Shown here: piece by piece, positions 4,704 through 59,300 of the stretch
Layout of the letters: every line of letters begins with the position of its first letter
Numbering within the stretch: position 1 is the stretch's first letter
DNA from: Octopus vulgaris
Taxonomy: Eukaryota
Length of the DNA stretch: 64,000 nucleotides
Assembly: GCA_951406725.2 (NCBI GenBank)
Contig: OX597823.1
Span: 42,222,001-42,286,000, forward strand
Reading direction: 5' to 3'
Notes under the pieces: generated by a model
Databases searched by the model: none
The model's input: the letters and a program-made list of their open reading frames with translations, nothing else
Told to the model about the DNA's origin: nothing
Position numbers and translations under genes: made by a program

Positions 4704-6755
4704 TTTTATTCTTTATAAATATAATTTCCCTAGTTGTTAATTTCACTTTCAGAGTATAAAACATGTACAATGTGTGTGTGTGTGTGTGTGGGTTTGTATA
4801 TGTGTTTCATCATCATTTAACATCTGTCTTTCATGTTGGAATAGGTTGGATGGGTCATTCCAGCCACCCACAACTTATCTTATTTCTAGATATGTAATGT
4901 AAAAGGTGCCAAACTGGATACAAACTAACAATCACCTGGGGAAAAACCCATTTATATCTACATATTCAGGAATAAGATATCTGATGGTAATGGAGATCAA
5001 AATATAGTGTACATATTAATATTGTAAATATACTTTCTAAACAAAGTAGATAATCTAAGAAGATATGATAATCTTTATAACAACAATTTAACTCAGACAT
5101 TCAGATATCTTAGGATTTGTAGACTTACTTCAATCTTTTTGCAATTCTTTATATTACCTTTGTGCACTTGTAAAGCAATTGTTTTGGTTTTCAATATTTT
5201 TTATCTTCCGTACATTTCTGTGATGATTCAGTGTGTATATTTAGTGTATATTTAGTGTTTGTACATTAAATGCATGTCTTGAAAGCTTGTTTACCAAATT
5301 TGACACAGACTTATGTTCAGTGTCAATGAAATTTTTCATCCAGCGTTCATCATCAAAGTGAGTTGTATGTTAGTATAATGTATAGAAGTAAAGTGGTGAA
5401 CTGGCAATATCGTTAGCATGCTGGAGAAAATGCTTAGTGGTATTTCATTCATTTTTATGTTCTGAGTTTAATTCCACCAAGGTTTACTTTGCCTTTCATT
5501 CTCTTGGCGTCAATAAAATAAGTGCCAACTGGGCAAATGGGTTGATGTAATCAACTTATCCCCTCCCCTGAACTTGCTGGCCTTGTGCCACAATTTGAAA
5601 CCAAGAGATTGGGGATCTGAAGTTAGAGTATAAAGCATAAAAACTTCCAGTAGTCAGTATTGACCCCTGAGGGTTTTATGTGGCTCTGTGAAGATTTAAT
5701 AAATACTTGAAATTATTTTGAAACACATTCTCTATTAAATATTCAAAGATATATCAATATGATATGACTGAAACTTTATGGTTCCCTTCCAATTTCATTA
5801 TGTGGCTCAAAATGTTTATTTTTAAAAAGTAATTATGAAATGAAAGAAGGTTTTTAAGTCAAGAAATGTTTTATTAATTACACTTCTAAATTTTATTTTA
5901 GAACTTCACATGTTTGGGTGGCAATAAGTTATTAATGATTTCATGAAGAGACAGACCAATGATATAAGAAATTTGCCAAACCCTGGTATAAAGTATAAGT
6001 TGTAGATGAATTACTATAAAGGGAAATATTCTTCTCTTGTAAAACATGTAAATATTGTCAGGTTTTCAGTGATAAAAGGTCTCAATAAAGAATGTTGGTA
6101 TTTATTTTATATATTTATGTTTGCATTTCTTTAACTGTTTAGTTCTATGTGTGTGGTTAATAAAGGTTACCTTCATTAGTCATGCTGACTTATAAGCCTG
6201 GTTTCCATGACATATAAATTCCCCACCTGGATGGATAGGATGCCAGTCCATTGTAGGTTTTACTCATTTTTGCCAGCCAAGTGGACTGGAGCAACAGGAA
6301 ATGAAGCGTTTTCGCCCAAGAACAGAACGTCCAGTCCAGGAATCAAAGCCTCAATCTTACAGTCATGAGTCCGACACCCTAACCACTGAGCCATGTGCCT
6401 CCTGTGAGGGTAATAGTCCTGGCTCTTTTGTAAGACCTCTCAAAACAAGTGAGATTGATGCATTTGTGGTTGACTGTTTGCACTCCACTCCATCCCTACC
6501 TCACCACCACCACCACCACCACCACCACACCAAAGGAAATGGAGGGAATTTCAGAAGAAAATTCTATCTGATGGAAGGAGGATAGGATTTATAGAAGTGT
6601 TAAATGCACAGAATAGAAATTATACAAGGTGAAACTGGATTTTTTAACAATTTGTATTATACCATTTGCTGTGGACTGGTAGACATTTTGAAATTTACTA
6701 TATTGGTTCTTTCATTCCTTGTATTACATTTTAACATGCCATTCTCTAAAAAAAG

Positions 6756-16882: not shown

Positions 16883-17995
16883 TTCAAGGTCTGATCAATA
16901 AGTATCCAGAGTGGTGCTATAAAAACAAAACTACAACACGTACCAATTTGGCATGTAATCTCCTTCAAAGCAGTCACCTTCGGAAGCCACACACTTAACC
17001 CAGCACTGTTTTCATTGATGGAAGCATTCCTGGAACTTGTTTTCTGGGATAACCAGCAGCTGCCACATCACATTCTCTTTGACTTCCTCGACGTCCTGAA
17101 ATCTTCTTCCTTTCAAGCGGGATTTGATTTTTGGAAAGAGGAAAAAGTCACAAAGGGCGAGATCTAGGGAATACGGTGGCTGTCAGACATGGGGAATGCT
17201 GTGCCTAGCCAAAACTGCTGCACAAGCTGCGCTGAATGGGTAGGTGCATTGTCATGGTGCAATTGCCACTCACTGGACACATGCAATTGTGGCCTTTTCC
17301 AACAAATAGCATCCCACAAATGCTGCAGAACATCACGATAGTACTCCTTGTTTACTGTTTGACCAAGTGGAGCATACTCATGATGAACAGTCCCCTCATT
17401 TGTGCTTTCTTCAGTCTCAGAGAGGTTGGGATCTTCCACTGTGAAGACTGAGCCTTTGTTTCAGGATCACAAGCATCAACCCACGATTCATCACCCATTA
17501 TAACAATTTTCAAAAAATTTTCATCATTCTCAACACGGTCAAAGAGATCTTGTGCAACTGAAACCTGAGTGTCCTTTTGGTCAGCTGAAACAGTTTTGGC
17601 ACAAACTTGGCTGACACACATCTCATACCTAAATCTTTCATGATCATGGACTGAAATGAACCTTAACTTATCTGCACATCCTCTGATAACTCACAGATGG
17701 TGATTTGATGACTTCCCCTCACAGCTGCATGCATATCTGTGATGTTTTCTCAGTTCTACTGGTTGCAGGTCTCTCAGAACGTTTGTCACTATCGACATTT
17801 TTTCAGCCATCTTGGAAATGTCTGAACCAGTCGTACACTTGTGTGCAGTTCATACACTTTCTGCAACTTTGCATAGGCCATTGAGCAGGTATCACCAAGC
17901 TTTTGGCAAAATTTGATGCAGATTCTCTGCCCAACTTTCTCTGTCATGGTCAATGTGACGATCATATGCTACACATGTTCCTTCCAAGGACTGCT
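16883..17995 (-). mobile_element. Decayed mariner (DD34D) DNA transposon
   Basis: Frameshifted transposase at about 17947 to 16950: MTEKVGQRICIKFC...VIMGDESWV...WQLHHDNAPTH...PPYSLDLALCDFFLFPKIK...EGDCFEGD. A TIR-like end (ttcaaggtctgatcaataagtatcc) lies at about 16883. Confidence 0.9.
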
Positions 17996-20083
17996 GAAAA
18001 CTTCTATGACTTCTTCAAAACCCTACATTATCTGCTACTGACACCAACATCTCAAATTTAATATGGATTCTCTGCTGGTGAAAACCTGTAGAGTCATGGA
18101 TGCAGTCTGGCCTGATTGTTTTACCCAATGCCATTGATAACTGAGAGTTTTTCTTCACCTATGACCCAGACATAATATCCAATGTATTCATAATGTTGAA
18201 CTTTATCCAGAAGTTGACAATAATGTTTATCCTCCCTAATTGCTATAATGAGTTGGTTAAGCCTTTATCAAATAATATGCCATGAAATTAGATATAACAT
18301 CTTGATTGTGATTGACTTAAAAACTGTGCCAAAACAGACAGTCTTTTGCCTGGCCAGCTCCTGTCAAACCATCCAACCCATGCCAGCATGGAAGGTGGAT
18401 GTAAAATGATGATAATGATGATGATCCATTTTCTGGAGCAAAAAATTTTTGTTCTTAAGAATATATTTCATTCTCATTCTATCAAAAAGATCAGTTAAGT
18501 TTGCTGATTTGTATTGTCTGAAAGGGATAATGCTTTATTGGAAATATTATGTTGGCCAATAATTTTCTGAAGTAGAGCCGCAAAATAGACTGTAAACCCA
18601 TTTTGGAAAAGCGTGATAGTCATCCTAGCCCTCTTATTTGAGCATCAATCCACAGGTAAATTAAACTTAGTATAACTTTTCAAAGTCCTTGGATTTTGAG
18701 GAAGCTGCTCACACACACATGCACACGCATACACAGGAACTTCCATTTTATATCAGCTGCAGCGTTTGTATCAACAAGAAGCATCAGATGGTTTTAAAAT
18801 CTTTAAAAGCTGGTGCTCATTTTTATCGTTACTAAAAAGAACTAATAGACAAGCACTTTCAGAAAAGTTCAATACTGTACATGCACTCGTGTATAGTCAC
18901 CTTCAGTAATAATTTTCTTCAGTTCATCATCATCATCATCATCTACTATCATCGACATCATCATTGTAACATCTACTTTTCCATGCTTGCATGGGTTGGA
19001 CAAAATTTACTCAGATGGATTTTTACAGCTAGATACTCTTTCTGTCACCAACACTCACCCGTTTCCAAGTGAGGTAATATTTCCCTTATGACCAGACATA
19101 TTTCTACAGAAGACTGAAAATGAAAAGCACTGCTTTTATGATAGTGACACTTGTTTACAACTATCATGCAATGTGAAAACAAAAAGACAGTAACACATGC
19201 ACATACACTCACACACATATATTACACAATGGGCTGCTTTCAGTTTCCTTTAACCAAATCCACTCACAAGGCTTTGGTCAACCTAGGGTTATAGTAGAAG
19301 ACACTAAGCCAAGGTACTATGCAGTGGGATTGAACTTGAAACTATGTAGTTGGGAAGCAAACTTATTACAACATAGCAATGTCTGTCTACAATAATTTGT
19401 TGTGGCCTCTGTATCATTATTAGCAATTTTACCCATGATTTTAAAGTTGTGTGTGGCTGTGTGTTAAGAAGCTTGTTCCTGACCACATGGTTCTGGGTTC
19501 AGTCACACAGCATGGCACTTTGGGCAATTATCTTCTACTATAGCCTCAGGCCAACCAGAGCCTTGTGAGTGGATTCTGTAGATGCAAACTGAGAGAAGCC
19601 CATCATATATATGTGTGTATGTGTGTCTTTGTGTCTGTATTTGTCCCTCACCACCACCATGCTCTCTTGGCAACCAATGCTGGTGTGTTTATGTCCCATA
19701 AATTAGCAGTTCAGTGAAATGAAACTGATGGAATAAGTACTAGGCTTACAAAGAATAAGTCCTGGGATCAATTTGTTCAACTAAAGGCAGTGCTCCAGCA
19801 TGTCTGCAGTCAAATGACTGAAACAACTAAAAGAATAAGAAATGTCTTTGCAGCAGATGTTGTATCTTCAAATTCCTTCAAATTATAATGCAAAATGTTA
19901 GCTTCCACTTCAGTGACTGTTATGTTTATTAGTATATATTATATGTACACACATCAAGTGCTTATCTGAAGTGATGCTTAAATGCATCACTTCATATTTG
20001 TAAAATAATAAAATAATGTTCAGGTTTTTAATGGCGTAACTGCTTTAGCACTTCCTCTAAACTTTGAAAATCATCAAGTTTAA

Positions 20084-20208: not shown

Positions 20209-21027
20209 TTAATGTCTACTTTAATCTTTTTATAGCTTCTTTATATAATACTACCTTCACTTCCAAATTTTAGTCTCTTTCCAGTCATCTTGGACAAGTG
20301 TAGATAGTAAAATTTGAGAAAATTATTGATGTTCTTTCTTGGCAAATAGTAGTAAACTTATTTAATTTAGTTATTTAGAGATAGAAATATAAGAAAATTC
20401 TGAAAAACAAAGTGGAGGGATGAAGTAGTGGGGGAAGTATTTTTTGGTTCGAGTTAGTACCAAGTCACAGGTCAGTTGAATTGGTGCACTTATAAACAAG
20501 CTGACTTGAGTGCCAAGAAGACAGCAAGTAGAAACTGACAAATACGATGAGGTCTATGAGAAAAGCAAGGCCAATTGAAGTGGTACATTCACAAATAAAG
20601 TCGAGAGCAGAGGAAGGAATATATTTTCAAACAGCTTGCATATCGTGATATTATTTTACCTGTAATTTATGTATTTCTGTAAGACTGGAATTATAGGCTG
20701 AAGCTTGAAATAAATGGCATACTTTGCAAATTATTCACACACACACACACTCAAAACTTCTTTCAGGTTCCATCTACCAAATCCACTTATAAGCCTTTGT
20801 TCAGTTCAGGGCTATAGTGGAAGACACTTGCCCAGGGTACCACACTGTGGGACTGAACTTGAAAGCACATGGTTAAGATATACATAATCTTATAAAGCAA
20901 ACAGCTATATGTATATATAAATATATATCTATATATATCCATATCCATCCGTCCATCCATCTATCTATCCATCCATCCCTCTATATATATGTATGTGTGT
21001 AATATATATATATATATATATATATAT

Positions 21028-21429
21028 TAAGTAGTTGAATGAATTATCCTAGTATGGATAATTCGGTTAACCGATACCCGGGTAGCAAATTTACGTCAGA
21101 AAGCACGGTTGAAGCTACATGCCAAGGGCAGAAATCACGTGCTTTCGTGTGGAAATTTGTGTGTCTTTTTACTTTAGATAAATGAAAGAATGGAGTCAAT
21201 CGACGATTTAACAAAATTCCTTTATTCTCGACACGTGTTTCGAAGACTGCATATTCTTAATTCCGAAGGAATAAAGGGTGCATTATGCCGTTAGACAGCA
21301 TTAAGCATTAAGACGGCATAATGCACCCTTTATTCCTTCGGAATTAAGAATATGCAGTCTTCGAAACACGTGTCGAGAATAAAGGAATTTTGTTAAATCG
21401 TCGTTCGACTCCTTTCTTTCATTTATCTA
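21028..21429 (-). mobile_element. Young foldback element (arms 21175-21429) with a half hammerhead and a structured tail
   Basis: Near-perfect arms of about 115 bp, each containing GAAACACGTGTC. The tail 21028-21175 contains the palindromes tcggttaaccga and tacccgggta. Flanked by (TA)n. Confidence 0.78.
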
Positions 21430-21450
21430 TATATATATATATATATATAT

Positions 21451-22284
21451 TAATTAATTAATAAGGGTGAGAGAATTAGATACTAATTTAATAGTATGTC
21501 TATTCAACACCAAGTGGCCTAGTGCTCCGAGAAACCTGGATAATTATAATATTTTATAATATATTATAATATTTTTACAAAATAAATATAAGAGAGTGGT
21601 CACTATATGGCTCACTCTAGCACCAGTTAATCCAAAAGGTTTCAACCACAAAAATACATGTTTCCCATGAAAGTCAGTACGATTGTTAGCTCACACGGAC
21701 AGGGCAAATAAAAAATAACAAAAATACAGATTATTTTGGGACAATTGTTTCGCTATTAATGAATTAAATGTAATTTTACTTACAAAAAAATCCACTTGTA
21801 GCTCGTCAGCCAAAACTATCTGGATGAAATCCACTCAATCACACACCAGATTTTACCATAACGATAAATACACGTGTGGTTCAATTGATTACATCCGACG
21901 TTATAATTCAAATGCCCCAACTAACAGCGCGCCAAACTTTCACGGAAAACAAATACTGCATTTAGAAATAAATGCAGCATAATTATAATTAATTAATAAG
22001 GGTGAGAGAATTAGATACTAATTTAATAGTATGTCTATTCAACACCAAGTGGCCTAGTGCTCCGAGAAACCTGGATAATTATAATATTTTATAATATATT
22101 ATAATATTTTTACAAAATAAATATAAGAGAGTGGTCACTATATGGCTCACTCTAGCACCAGTTAATCCAAAAGGTTTCAACCACAAAAATACATGTTTCC
22201 CATGAAAGTCAGTACAATTGTTAGCTCACACGGACAGGGCAAATAAAAAATAACAAAAATACAGATTATTTTGGGACAATTGTT
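21451..22284 (-). mobile_element. Non-coding retrozyme-like or Penelope-pLTR-like element; 535-bp period, about 1.56 units, inserted in (TA)n
   Basis: 21451-21749 is repeated at 21986-22284 with one mismatch seen. It contains the hammerhead, is flanked by TA tracts, and has no substantial ORF. Confidence 0.82.
21734..21815 (-). ncRNA. Type I hammerhead ribozyme, fully canonical
   Basis: Minus strand reads TTTTGG CTGACGA GCTA-(43 nt)-TAGC GAAAC AATT GTC^CCAAAA: 6-bp stem I, 4-bp stem II, palindromic stem III, GUC cleavage after 21740. Confidence 0.88.
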
Positions 22285-22390
22285 ATATATGTATATATAT
22301 ATATATAACAAAATCAGTGACTGATTGTCACCTATTTTTCTATATATTGCAAGATGGAGTGAACTACTGCTATCTCTAGTGGATGGGTGT

Positions 22391-41102: not shown

Positions 41103-42240
41103 ACACCCAGAACCACGCTAATAGCTTAGGAATGAAATTTAGGATTCCTCAGTTTTCTGTAAATCGATTTTGTTAAAACTTTTCCCAGCTGGTTTGAACA
41201 CAATGGCAACACCATTGTTATGTTTTCATTTTTCTGTGTGACGTCCTTTGTTTTGTACTTTAGATTCTTCAGTTTCTGGGTGAACCATGCTAATAGCTTT
41301 TGAATGAAAATTGCCCATCTGGACATTTGTTTTCAGAAAATGAGGGGAAATGATAGATATTAAGCATACATTGAGAATATATTTAACAGAAAAACCATAA
41401 TAATATTTTAACATTTATGGACCTAATGAATTATTTTGCCACATGAGTGCCATTTCAAGGGATAACTTCAAAAACCCTACTAGTCGTGGAATCTGTCAAT
41501 TTCTTAATAGTAGCTGGTTGGACTACCTCTGCTGCAGCTTTGATAGTTGCCCATATGACATTTTTTTATGTAAATTGGCGTCCATCAGCATAAACATCTT
41601 GTTTAATGATGGACCAAAGATTTTCAGTAGGGTTAAGATCCAGAGATGCGAGCAGCCACACCATCAACCTTTCACCTTGTATGTTGTAAGACCCTAGGAA
41701 TGTTTGGGTGCTCCTAGCAGAGTGGGAGGGAGCATTGTCATGCATGAATATGAGATTCCTTAGAAATGACCACAGTATGTCATTTAGCCAGGGATCCAAG
41801 ACCTTCAGGAGATTGCTGTAGGTGATTACGGTCACCTTAACCTCTTCAGGCACCCTGGCTGGGCCAAAAAGTCTGCCCCAATGATACCAGCCCACAACGT
41901 GCTCCTCCACTCTGTTGTTGATGTCATTAATATTGGTGGTGCTCCTCTCCAAAATAGACCCAACCATCAGGTTCATCAAAGGTTGCCCTGGTTTTGTCAG
42001 GGAACAGAAAACTGCTTATGTTTAATGTCATGTACTTTTGGACCCATTGAAACCTCAGACTCCTGTGAGGGATTCTCACACAGAAGCTATGGTCCCAATG
42101 ATGTGATTTCTGGTGGTTTTTGGTACATGAGGAAGTCCAAATGTGGTGAAAATGGCTTTTCTTGTTTGTCTGGGTTTCCCATATAACTTGGGGCCTTAAA
42201 TCTTTAGCTGTCACAGTCTTGGAGGTCCTACAATCAGATC
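41102..42240 (-). mobile_element. Decayed Tc1-like (DD34E) transposon fragment
   Basis: Motifs FPDKTRATFDEPDGW, IFMHDNAPSHSAR and SLDLNPTENLWSIIKQ across frameshifted ORFs. Confidence 0.88.
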
Positions 42241-56326: not shown

Positions 56327-59300
56327 ATAAGCTAAAAAATATCAACCTTGGTTCTTGGAATGTGTGCACTCTCCGAGACAGTCACTCAGCTCCAGAGTGA
56401 AAAACAGCACCAGTTGCCCTTGAACTACAGTTAGAAGAACATAAAGGGGGATACATATCTTTCTGGTGTGGAAGAAATGAAGATATGCCATGCCACCTAG
56501 GTGTTGGTTTTGCCATTAAAACAGAAATAGCTAGATCCCTTTCTTTCTCTACCCTAAAGTATTTCTGACATGTCATGATACTAATGTTGGAACTTGATCG
56601 CAACACTCATGCTATAATTGTCAGATGGTATGCCCCAACCATGGCCAGCACTGAGCAGGAAAAGGTTGAATTTTATCATAGGTATAACTTATCCTTATTG
56701 ACAACTTTAACACTCATGTTGGTACTGACTACCAGGTATGGGAGGATGTTATTAGTTGCTACGTTGTAGGTTGAATGAACTCCAGGGAATTCAGTCTAAG
56801 CATCACAAATATCTTTTTTCAATAGCAGAATTGTTGCAAGATGCCCTGAGTGCATTCTAGATCTAAGGATTGGCATCTTATAAACTACAATATCACTCAG
56901 AAATGAGATATTAGGAACTTTAGCATTACACATTCCTTTCATAACACCTGCTGTCTCTCTGACCATTTTCTTCTCTCTAGTAAGGCTATGTTCCATTTGA
57001 AATACACAAGACTACAAAAGTCATCAGTGCTTAAGTGCATTAATGTTCTGCATTTGAAAACTTTTGGAAGCAGACTGAGCTTTCTATCAAGTTGGACACT
57101 GCACTCGGCTCTGCATGATGCAATGCACTGTGCATCTGTAAAGGTTCTTGAACTTCCTATTCATAAACATCAAGATTGGTTCAACAATAACAACACAGAT
57201 GTCCAAAAGTTGATAGATAAAATGCACAGCTCTCACAAAAGATGGATAAATAAAAAGATAAATAAAAAGAATTCATCCAGAAAAGAGAATACCTACAAGA
57301 AATGCTGAAGCCAGGACCAACATGCTCTGAGACAGATGAAGGATGCTTGGTGATCTTTGAAGGCTACTGAACTCCAAGAAGCTGCAGACAGAAAGGATTC
57401 TAAAGCCTTTTATGATGGCCTCAAGGAAGTGTATGGTCCTCAAGAGGACCAAGAGCATGGTGTTACTCCTATTTTTTCATCGAATAGAGAGAGACTGCTG
57501 ACTGACAAATCTAACATCTTGAAACGATGGAAAGATCACTTTGAAGCCATGTCGAACTTCGCCTCAGTCACTAATGATGATATCATATCTGTTCTACAGT
57601 ACACTGAAATACCGGAACTGTCTCTGGAGCCAGCCTTCCTGGGAGTGGTAAACACTGTTAAACAGATCTCCTCTGGCAAATCATCTACCAGGGATGCTAT
57701 CCCTCTTGAAATCTACAAACATGGTGGACAGAACCTTTTTAAGAAACTGCATTACCTCTTCATAAACATTTGGAAGGTAGGCTGTGTACCAGAGGACTTC
57801 AAGGAAATAGAAGTGTCTGTGATAATCATCATGGAATATCGTTTCTGTCTATCGCTGGTGAGATTCTTGATTGACTCATACTTGCCAAGATCATCAAACA
57901 TATTATAAATGATATCTATCCAAAATCACATTCTGGTTGTGGCAGTATTGACATGATCTTTTCCCTCCAACAGATCATGGAGAGGGTATGTGAGAAAAAT
58001 CAAGAGTTGTTTTTGATATTCGTTGACCTTACTAAGGCCTTTGACATTGTTAACCAGCAAGCACTATGGAAAGTCCTGAAAAAGCTTGGTATACCTGACA
58101 AAATGGTGAATGTTATCATCTCCTTTCATGAGAGAGTGAAGGTTGCTGTCATGTCTGGTGTGGAATCTTTGGCTTCCTTCGACGTTACAAACAGCACAAA
58201 GCAAGGTTGTGTTATGGCCCCTGTTTTGTTTGCACTCTTCTTTTCAGTGATGCTGAGGTATGCTTTTGGTGACATACAAAATGGTGTCAAATTCCAGTTT
58301 TGAACAAGTGGTGGGCTATTCAATCATCAGCGTTTCAAAGCCAAAACTGCTACGCACTAGTATCATTCATGATCTATTTTTTGCAGATGACCTCATAGTA
58401 GTGACTTACTTAGAGGAAGCTCAAGAACTACTAGACCGGTTTTGTGCTGCATGTAGAGCTTTTGATTTGACCATCAGCATAAAGAAGATGGAAGTAATCT
58501 ACCAACCTTGTCCTACACCTAAACAAATTCAAGGTGTCAAGCAAAGGCCACCAGTTCACAGTTTTTCTGACACTCCTATAAAGGTTGACAGGAAAAGCCT
58601 AAATTATGTGAAGTCATTTACATGTAGTAAAGTGAATTTGAGCCCTTCCCTTCATGATGAAATCGTCAACCATCTTGCAAGGGAAACCAACACATTTGGC
58701 AAACTCTGTCATCACCTATGGAGTGAAAGGGGCATCCAACTTGACACCAAAGTACAGGTCTATAAAGCAGCTATTCTCACTACTCTCTTGAACAGCTCAG
58801 AATTGAGGATACCCTATAGACGACACATTAACCTTCCACAAAGACTGCCTGAGGAGAATCTGGTTATTCACTAAAAGACAAAGTTTCTAATGCCGACTTG
58901 TTTAGCCAGTGTGAGATTGGTGGGATTGAGAGCTTCCTTATACAATCACAATTGTGCTGGGCTGGCCATGTTGTCAGAATTAGTTGACGAAAGAATGCCC
59001 AAAGTCCACATGTATAGCCAGCTTGAAAGTGGGCACAGGAATGCTGATCGATCATGACTCAGATATCAGTACAAGCTGAAGAGTAACCTCTTAGATATGA
59101 AGATAGCTCACAACACTTTTGAGCAAACAGCCTTGGAACAAACAAAATGGAGATTGTTGTGTCAAAATAGTATTGGAAACTTTGTTGCAACTAGCATTAA
59201 CAGGTTTTGGTGTGAAAGGCAAAGAAGAAAAGTAGCTGCAAATATACAACCTACCCTGACGTGTAATCCTCATACTCGCAACATCTGTGGCCCTCTTTGC

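Follow-up and report, generated by a model that had tools for sequence, protein, structure and literature searches.

The element analysed here is, by its sequence, a non-LTR retrozyme: a young, dispersed, non-coding repeat with a predicted hammerhead ribozyme. It lies in a window of Octopus vulgaris DNA (throughout, the whole stretch of 64,000 nucleotides that was analysed). This copy is likely to be a 5'-truncated retrozyme that was copied into a (TA)n microsatellite by a Penelope-like reverse transcriptase (RT) with a GIY-YIG endonuclease, probably from a circular monomer RNA. The element type is already known; the two-start insertion footprint is unusually readable. For animal retrozymes, a return to DNA by way of an RNA circle and a Penelope-like helper has been proposed but not shown. 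The insertions of this family are short, very young and number in the hundreds; their two start sites, A and B, are defined to the base and are paired almost strictly.

The element in the window

The copy contains a direct repeat of 299 nt (21451-21749 and 21986-22284) at a spacing of 535, which extends no further on either side and has a single mismatch (G at 21681, A at 22216). The sequence-only reading that preceded this work had described it as a repeat of about 299 bp with a 535-bp period and one mismatch, and it measured exactly so. On the minus strand, the element starts as AACAATTGTC^CCAAAA at 22284, 10 nt ahead of a cut position; past the cut after 21740 it continues for 289 nt and then enters (TA)n. 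These coordinates agree with the earlier description of a start at ^CCAAAA 10 nt before a cleavage site, a run to a complete ribozyme and about 290 nt more into (TA)n. Unit positions are counted from 22274, the first base 3' of the cut, as position 1 (Table 1).

Table 1. Parts of the retrozyme copy and its flanks, in window positions
Feature	Position	Strand	Remarks
Whole insertion, one-armed 1.56-mer of the retrozyme	21451..22284	-	5'-truncated at unit position 526; 3' end is site A
535-nt monomer, cut to cut	21740..22274	-	31.8% GC
Type I hammerhead, predicted activity	21727..21822	-	cut after 21740
10-nt remnant of upstream unit	22275..22284	-	stem III and cut triplet only; random 5' truncation point
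Site A, fixed 3' end used by the window copy	21451..21465	-	unit position about 275-291
Site B, second fixed 3' end	21579..21600	-	ends at unit position 161; unused in the window copy
"Tail" of about 128 nt between sites B and A	21451..21578	-	on one arm only of two-armed insertions
(TA)n target microsatellite, 3' end of element	21428..21450	.	
(TA)n-type run, 5' end of element	22285..22307	.	

The 10-nt remnant is incapable of forming a ribozyme in cis. Sites A and B each occur a second time in the element, A as an unused copy at 21986-22000 and B at 22114-22135; the concept of a "tail" between them is taken from PMC8557442. Any target duplication is unreadable, because the insertions sit in (TA)n. 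The unit has no useful protein-coding frame on either strand of the circularised monomer, where the longest ATG-started frames are 19 aa (sense) and 52 aa (antisense), and the frame encoding RT and GIY-YIG that marks an autonomous Penelope-like element is absent from it. A motif scan for Pol III promoters gave nothing convincing. Folded as a circle, the monomer is predicted to be highly paired (-146.4 kcal/mol, z -6.2 against 60 shuffles).

Other repeats are found nearby. At 21027-21429, a second, unrelated hammerhead-bearing family adjoins the same (TA)n tract. That insertion is two-armed; its inverted arms measure 117 nt, and the left one carries a tail of about 145 nt. Each arm breaks off within the ribozyme, and fuller copies elsewhere have a complete type I hammerhead. 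There are 2,783 candidates for this family, the best at 96-98% identity. The sequences at 19229-19603 and 20757-20878 form an older inverted pair, about 128 nt long and 73% complementary, with a third copy in the vicinity. Broken frames at 56907-58874 (+) and at 17352-17690 (-) and 41566-42238 (-) presumably resemble a LINE-type reverse transcriptase and Tc1/mariner-type transposases, respectively.

The predicted hammerhead and the RNA fold

Each unit has a type I hammerhead with a canonical core and three stems. In the window copy the minus-strand core is made up of CTGACGA (21809-21803), GAAA (21751-21748) and the GTC^ that precedes the cut; stem I has 7+5 bp, stem II is long (51 nt) and stem III consists of 2 bp closed by a palindromic loop. 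A motif scan of both strands of the 64 kb returned no second type I hammerhead. Rfam gave no matches in the window at gathering score, so the hammerhead call rests on the consensus core and stems and not on a family model. When folded without constraint, the core is paired away (-28.3 kcal/mol, vs -22.7 kcal/mol for the ribozyme-shaped fold), and since the ribozyme-shaped fold is the less stable of the two, hammerhead activity is a prediction. The hammerhead had been called perfect from the sequence; this is borne out by the canonical core, but not by the 2-bp stem III, the 51-nt stem II or the competing, more stable fold.

Is the RNA conserved? Across 114 loci, no inherited change falls in the 12 core positions, against 1.6 expected, a difference that is not significant alone (P=0.2). 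At N7, a free position of the core, 17 of the 114 loci have A and 16 have G; it has changed twice, and in the predicted fold a C there can pair the core away. Over the whole unit, 21 of the 72 inherited changes break a predicted pair, where changes of the same types would be expected to break 30 (P=0.007), in a test that used a fold of the window's own sequence and may thereby inflate the deficit; the 213 other changes have no such deficit (115 vs 105 expected). Two pairs, 300/317 and 125/144, have changed on both sides, in 5 and 7 loci. The lower number of pair-breaking inherited changes argues for selection on the retrozyme RNA fold, as modelled here.

Size and dispersal of the family

At least 151 matches to the element were found (40 of 1,025 candidates were scored), mostly at 97-99% identity and on many contigs, which means that the element is neither a chance sequence nor a local artefact. 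Exact 20-mers across the cut site number 2,152 genome-wide (control 0), exact ends running from site A into (TA)n 855, and those from site B into (TA)n 490. As exact-word counts are lower bounds, there are at least 855 insertions. Among the loci fetched, tandems of 533-535-bp units reach up to 11.5 units, and the repeat in them is a permuted tandem rather than an LTR pair. The sequence-only reading had seen a young, retrozyme-like element with greater-than-unit copies, and the family found here, dispersed, non-coding and hammerhead-bearing, upholds it: the search for further copies showed that the element is not single-copy, and in the loci examined no copy ends a coding element, as would a repeat that was only the terminus of a coding Penelope element.

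The counts below come from three sets of loci. Set 1 has 39 loci picked for their similarity to the full 834 nt, together with the window, and is biased to long copies; set 2 has 50 loci, drawn from the first 100 among 218 exact matches to a hammerhead 20-mer; and set 3 has 26 further loci from a third search. One broken insertion is present three times (L109, L110 and L111) within 30 kb near the start of contig C6, which indicates a later segmental duplication. The duplicates L110 and L111 were left out of the end, junction, haplotype and 114-locus counts, as were pieces below 88% identity and the second pieces in L063 and L088, and variant calling ignored 12-15 nt at arm ends. Locus L088 also holds (at 4838-5409) a scrambled copy riddled with TA pieces, 2.6 kb from a clean one, which is probably an assembly artefact. 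This copy is 80% identical, and when it was used to look for older relatives it brought up nothing but members of the family, which match the window monomer at 93-98% identity.

Insertion ends and the two-arm rule

Where do the copies start and stop? The fixed ends are 3' ends: site B lies at unit position 161, site A at 288-291, and both run on into (TA)n. The 5' ends, by contrast, are scattered round the unit: 7 of 145 arms end within 10 nt of the cut vs 5.7 expected (P=0.34), a single one within 2 nt, and 129 of the 145 run past the cut. Given this spread, the 10-nt offset of the window copy is an ordinary truncation, and the earlier idea that the element is registered on the cleavage site has to be dropped.

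The inverted, 5'-truncated partner that is expected of a Penelope-mobilised sequence is present in 61 of the 90 loci of sets 1 and 2, where two arms are joined head to head at their 5' ends. One arm ends at A and the other at B in 58 of these 61, the other 3 being duplicates of one broken insertion. A tail on one arm only, as expected from two internal start sites, is likewise present, with a length of 128 nt. Of the 29 one-armed loci, 18 have their 3' end at A, 9 at B and 2 elsewhere, and the window copy belongs to the one-armed A type. In set 3, counted by eye, 13 of 16 two-armed loci are A+B, 2 are broken and 1 is A+A; in L244, both arms have site-A-type ends and one arm is 33 nt long. End coordinates on contig C1 and the first 81 Mb of C2 (input 100 A ends and 52 B ends) gave 25 head-to-head pairs, 6 of which overlap the fetched locus sets, and all 25 were A+B (P about 2e-9 if the ends were independent). 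Arm lengths are uncorrelated (Spearman 0.11, P=0.41, n=58), and both arms are longer than one unit in 24 of 58 loci. Two-armed loci consist of monomer units over their whole length; the starts of one-armed loci are spread over the unit, and their flanks are unrelated.

A likely Penelope-type mobilizer and candidate helpers

In the accessible text of PMC8557442, Penelope-like insertions are described as carrying a 5'-truncated partner in inverted orientation and, on one side only, a tail; (TA)n is given as a preferred target of one Penelope-like clade, and the origin of the tails and inverted arms is termed undefined. According to the available parts of PMC11167929, a purified lizard Penelope enzyme, a predicted dimer, cleaves AT-rich DNA on both strands, extends both, and begins copying at two internal sites of the RNA, which define the tail; ribozyme mutants of the lizard element were still inserted in vitro, cleavage being dispensable. 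It is very probable that the mobilizer of the octopus retrozyme is of the Penelope type, with candidate helpers that are unmatched to it by sequence.

Two very young families with RT and GIY-YIG are present in the genome. The intact frame encodes 781 aa in one of them and 775 aa in the other, whose unit measures 4,271 bp; all 110 scored copies of the latter are 100% identical over 373 aa. In a Pfam search with a candidate helper, GIY-YIG scored above the cut-off and RVT_1 just below it, and a cysteine linker precedes the endonuclease in both proteins. This linker points to the Neptune or Nematis type for both families, by the definition in the accessible part of PMC8557442. Both insert into (TA)n with a long arm and a short arm (3/3 and 9/9 two-armed loci seen for the 781-aa and 775-aa families, respectively). 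The 781-aa family carries a minimal hammerhead-like motif. The 4,271-bp family is without a recognisable hammerhead, yet it forms tandems and follows the same two-end rule. (Loci of these young families are L161:1781-6590, L165:2990-6175 and L230; each of the two frames is preceded by a separate open frame of 450-480 aa, of no clear family.)

No convincing homology of the retrozyme to coding elements was found in 20 coding-element loci and the two family units. An AT-rich hairpin of the retrozyme is 70% alike over 71 nt to the 775-aa family, the best similarity to a Penelope 3' region and a score that 17 of 500 shuffles equal, and for helper assignment by sequence the best scores with the two Penelope families were reached by 17 and 45 of 500 shuffles. 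Scoring covered 150 of 6,136 endonuclease candidates, and a coding homologue may have escaped it. The 128-nt tail exceeds the 30-40 nt described for Penelope elements. Further, different hammerhead-like motifs, one of them as an inverted pair, were seen in the flanks of unrelated loci (L128:208 and 455, L141 and L161:7424), indicating that the genome holds several more ribozyme repeat families.

A probable circular or multimeric template

The junctions across the cut are seamless: 238 of 247 cut-site 20-mers are exact and none has added bases at the cut. There are 43 haplotypes in 72 loci, and 44 of the 52 loci with at least 3 units are internally uniform; 14 single-locus variants fill every unit of their locus, and 9 of these span both arms. 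Seamless junctions, arms that both exceed one unit and loci that differ from each other yet are uniform within point to a template without a free 5' end at the cut and to a single-unit bottleneck. The origin from a circular or multimeric RNA that the sequence-only reading had proposed is, from the DNA junctions and ends, the simplest source of the greater-than-unit copies. The choice between the two forms is more complicated. Pairing of A with B does not in itself prove a circle, since the hammerhead-free Penelope family obeys the same rule, and uniform arrays could also stem from uniform master arrays outside the 114 analysed loci of at least 855. Nor would detection of the cut-site junction by RT-PCR alone be decisive, since genomic tandem arrays carry GTC/CCAAAA too. 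Mosaic units occur in 8 of the 52 multi-unit loci. In L031 and L043, a variant is equidistant from the 3' end in both arms and absent from some units; each of these loci looks like one mixed multimer copied twice. Locus L034 (1668-7833) repeats a four-unit block, and L037 and L069 have core-changing variants in some units; the mosaic long arrays of these three loci suggest multimeric templates or later unequal crossing-over. The patterns in L031, L043 and L034 fit multimeric templates or later recombination better than a monomer circle. Overall, the templates were probably a mixture in which monomer circles predominated.

Could the same family and a Penelope-type enzyme have made do without circles, using linear multimers, long and uncut, that were transcribed from a small number of master arrays, with the ribozyme incidental to insertion? 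The mosaic loci speak for this, as do the variants of L031 and L043 that are matched by their distance from the 3' end, the tandems and two-end rule of the hammerhead-free 4,271-bp family, and the lizard ribozyme mutants that inserted in vitro (in the accessible text of PMC11167929). However, the 43 mostly uniform haplotypes would need dozens of separately homogenised masters, and linear copying with 5' truncation only shortens arrays, yet arrays of more than 10 units exist. The predicted fold is, in addition, spared by inherited changes, and we regard a purely linear multimer as unlikely. Uniform arrays would also result if the template were a self-cleaved linear monomer and the enzyme jumped from its 5' end to its 3' end at the cut, and the window copy does start 10 nt from a cut. 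Of the alternatives, this one comes nearest to the earlier idea of registration on the cleavage site. Template jumps usually leave added-base scars at the junction. None of the 247 junctions has such a scar and there is no pile-up of 5' ends at the cut (1/145 within 2 nt), so jumping at the cut is disfavoured, to the point of being highly improbable.

Many frog retrozymes match Penelope termini, according to the accessible text of a preprint (bioRxiv 10.64898/2026.07.22.740005), and the octopus repeat might similarly be no more than a terminal repeat (pseudo-LTR) belonging to some coding Penelope element, or else a DNA-level satellite, with no 535-nt RNA of its own. A coding homologue may indeed have been missed among the endonuclease candidates, and the long arrays have signs of local DNA-level amplification. 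On the other hand, the two-armed loci are monomer units throughout, the one-armed starts are scattered between unrelated flanks, no convincing homology to the coding elements compared was found, and dispersed copies with two fixed (TA)n ends are unlike satellite expansion, which makes an origin of this kind very improbable. The unit is also viroid-sized, highly paired and ribozyme-bearing, as a viroid-like RNA would be that replicated from RNA to RNA and was occasionally captured by the genome. But the motif scan detected the hammerhead on one strand only, whereas a viroid-like replicon is marked by ribozymes or replication intermediates of both polarities and by independence from genomic DNA; hundreds of precise genomic insertions with the footprint of a host Penelope element explain the spread; and every haplotype is seen as genomic DNA. 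The chance of such a replicon is exceedingly small, and the "RNA replicon" of the sequence-only reading, with its RNA-to-RNA copying, gives way to a footprint of reverse transcription by a Penelope-like enzyme.

Possible RNA-level signals

Of 20 listed sequencing runs, 19 contain at least half of the element's words; 14 runs are guessed to be RNA, and none is on record as RNA. The contigs of four guessed-RNA runs all cover the whole unit, and each run has a contig that goes back by one unit (in run X1, a single contig of 565 letters, 535+30). Tandem DNA would give the same self-closing contigs, which therefore count neither for nor against a circle. On the ribozyme strand, the guessed-RNA contigs have A-to-G differences at unit position 57 in three runs and at positions 62, 85, 99, 100 and 134 in one or two; these are absent from 329-361 genomic unit pieces. 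They are at most a lead to possible RNA editing. The region concerned corresponds to window positions 21606-21686 (unit positions 54-134), and position 66 is also G in two genomic loci. Inherited A-to-G and T-to-C changes (12 vs 10, P=0.17) show no strand bias.

Proposed mechanism

How, then, might a Penelope-type enzyme and a mostly circular monomer RNA have produced these insertions? A locus with at least two ribozymes would be transcribed, and the hammerheads would excise the 535-nt monomer, perhaps cutting as dimers, given the weak, palindromic stem III; a host ligase would then close the circle, by analogy with the coral, mussel and axolotl retrozymes. A Penelope-type protein would cut both strands of (TA)n, and one DNA end would prime at site A, its partner at site B; on the RNA the two sites are 128 nt apart. 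Fixed ends and pairing of A with B are seen in the DNA, and the enzyme itself is presumed. Each copy would be extended 5'-ward through the sealed cut for a variable length, in keeping with the read-through seen in the DNA. The two copies would finally be joined head to head, or one arm would be lost as in the window; the resulting structures are seen in the loci, and the route to them is conjectural.

It is also conceivable, though doubtful, that each insertion records one Penelope dimer that primed both break ends on one 535-nt RNA circle with exactly one site A and one site B and went round it for several laps, with A-to-G edits made by the host sometimes written back. If this were true, the insertions would prove, from the genome, that a Penelope enzyme reverse-transcribes a ribozyme circle in rolling-circle fashion, and they would account for the tail and the inverted arm of Penelope elements. 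With a 535-nt template and two candidate helper proteins of 775-781 aa, the mechanism is testable in vitro.

Relationship to known elements

Among the closest counterparts are the non-LTR retrozymes of animals, whose units measure 220-245 bp in coral, 350-390 bp in mussel and 330/350 bp in axolotl (Cervera and de la Pena 2020, PMC7229834). The octopus family shares with them, as far as the accessible text of that paper goes, the tandem non-coding units, one type I hammerhead in each, a GC content below 50% and many dispersed copies; the 2-bp stem III with a four-base loop is also found in axolotl HHR_Amex2. It differs in its longer unit of 535 and its long stem II, and its RNA circle is a prediction. 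The two fixed internal starts, the (TA)n targets and the head-to-head arms are not described for retrozymes in the accessible text of PMC7229834. A cycle from circle to tandem cDNA has been proposed for animal retrozymes, with Penelope-like elements as likely helpers (accessible parts of PMC7229834 and PMC7761336), and the monomer circle postulated here would match that cycle. No cephalopod retrozyme and no two-armed retrozyme insertions were found in the literature covered, a scope with few subscription journals and without the supplementary files of PMC7229834 and a 2026 preprint on vertebrates, where such elements may be listed.

For vertebrates, that preprint (Li, Clavereau, Pollet, bioRxiv 10.64898/2026.07.22.740005) gives, in its accessible part, retrozyme consensus lengths of 51-972 bp, so the monomer length of 535 nt, which had seemed unusual to the sequence-only reading, lies within the known range; one of nine predicted frog retrozymes cleaved in vitro. 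The octopus family resembles the vertebrate retrozymes in length and in occurring together with Penelope-like elements. In vertebrates, the link to Penelope consists of this co-occurrence and of pLTR homology, and local tandem expansion is favoured; in the octopus, the insertion footprint makes the connection, the loci compared hold no pLTR homologue, and the arrays look insertion-made.

With the C-terminal GIY-YIG Penelope-like elements (Craig et al. 2021, PMC8557442; Frangieh et al. 2024, PMC11167929, both from their accessible text), the retrozyme shares several features: tandems that are partial, a 5'-truncated partner in inverted orientation, a tail on one side, insertion into AT-rich or microsatellite DNA, and two start sites within the RNA. 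Unlike them, it has no coding frame, a unit of 535 bp vs 3-5 kb and a tail of about 128 vs 30-40 nt, and its hammerhead is full-size, whereas theirs is minimal. Non-autonomous Chlamys elements such as MRC1, as the available text of PMC8557442 presents them, are likewise non-coding Penelope passengers with head-to-tail multicopy insertions. Elements of the MRC1 type resemble their helper at the 3' end, whereas the octopus retrozyme is without a matched helper; and the Chlamys clade is described as lacking canonical hammerheads, whereas the octopus retrozyme has one.
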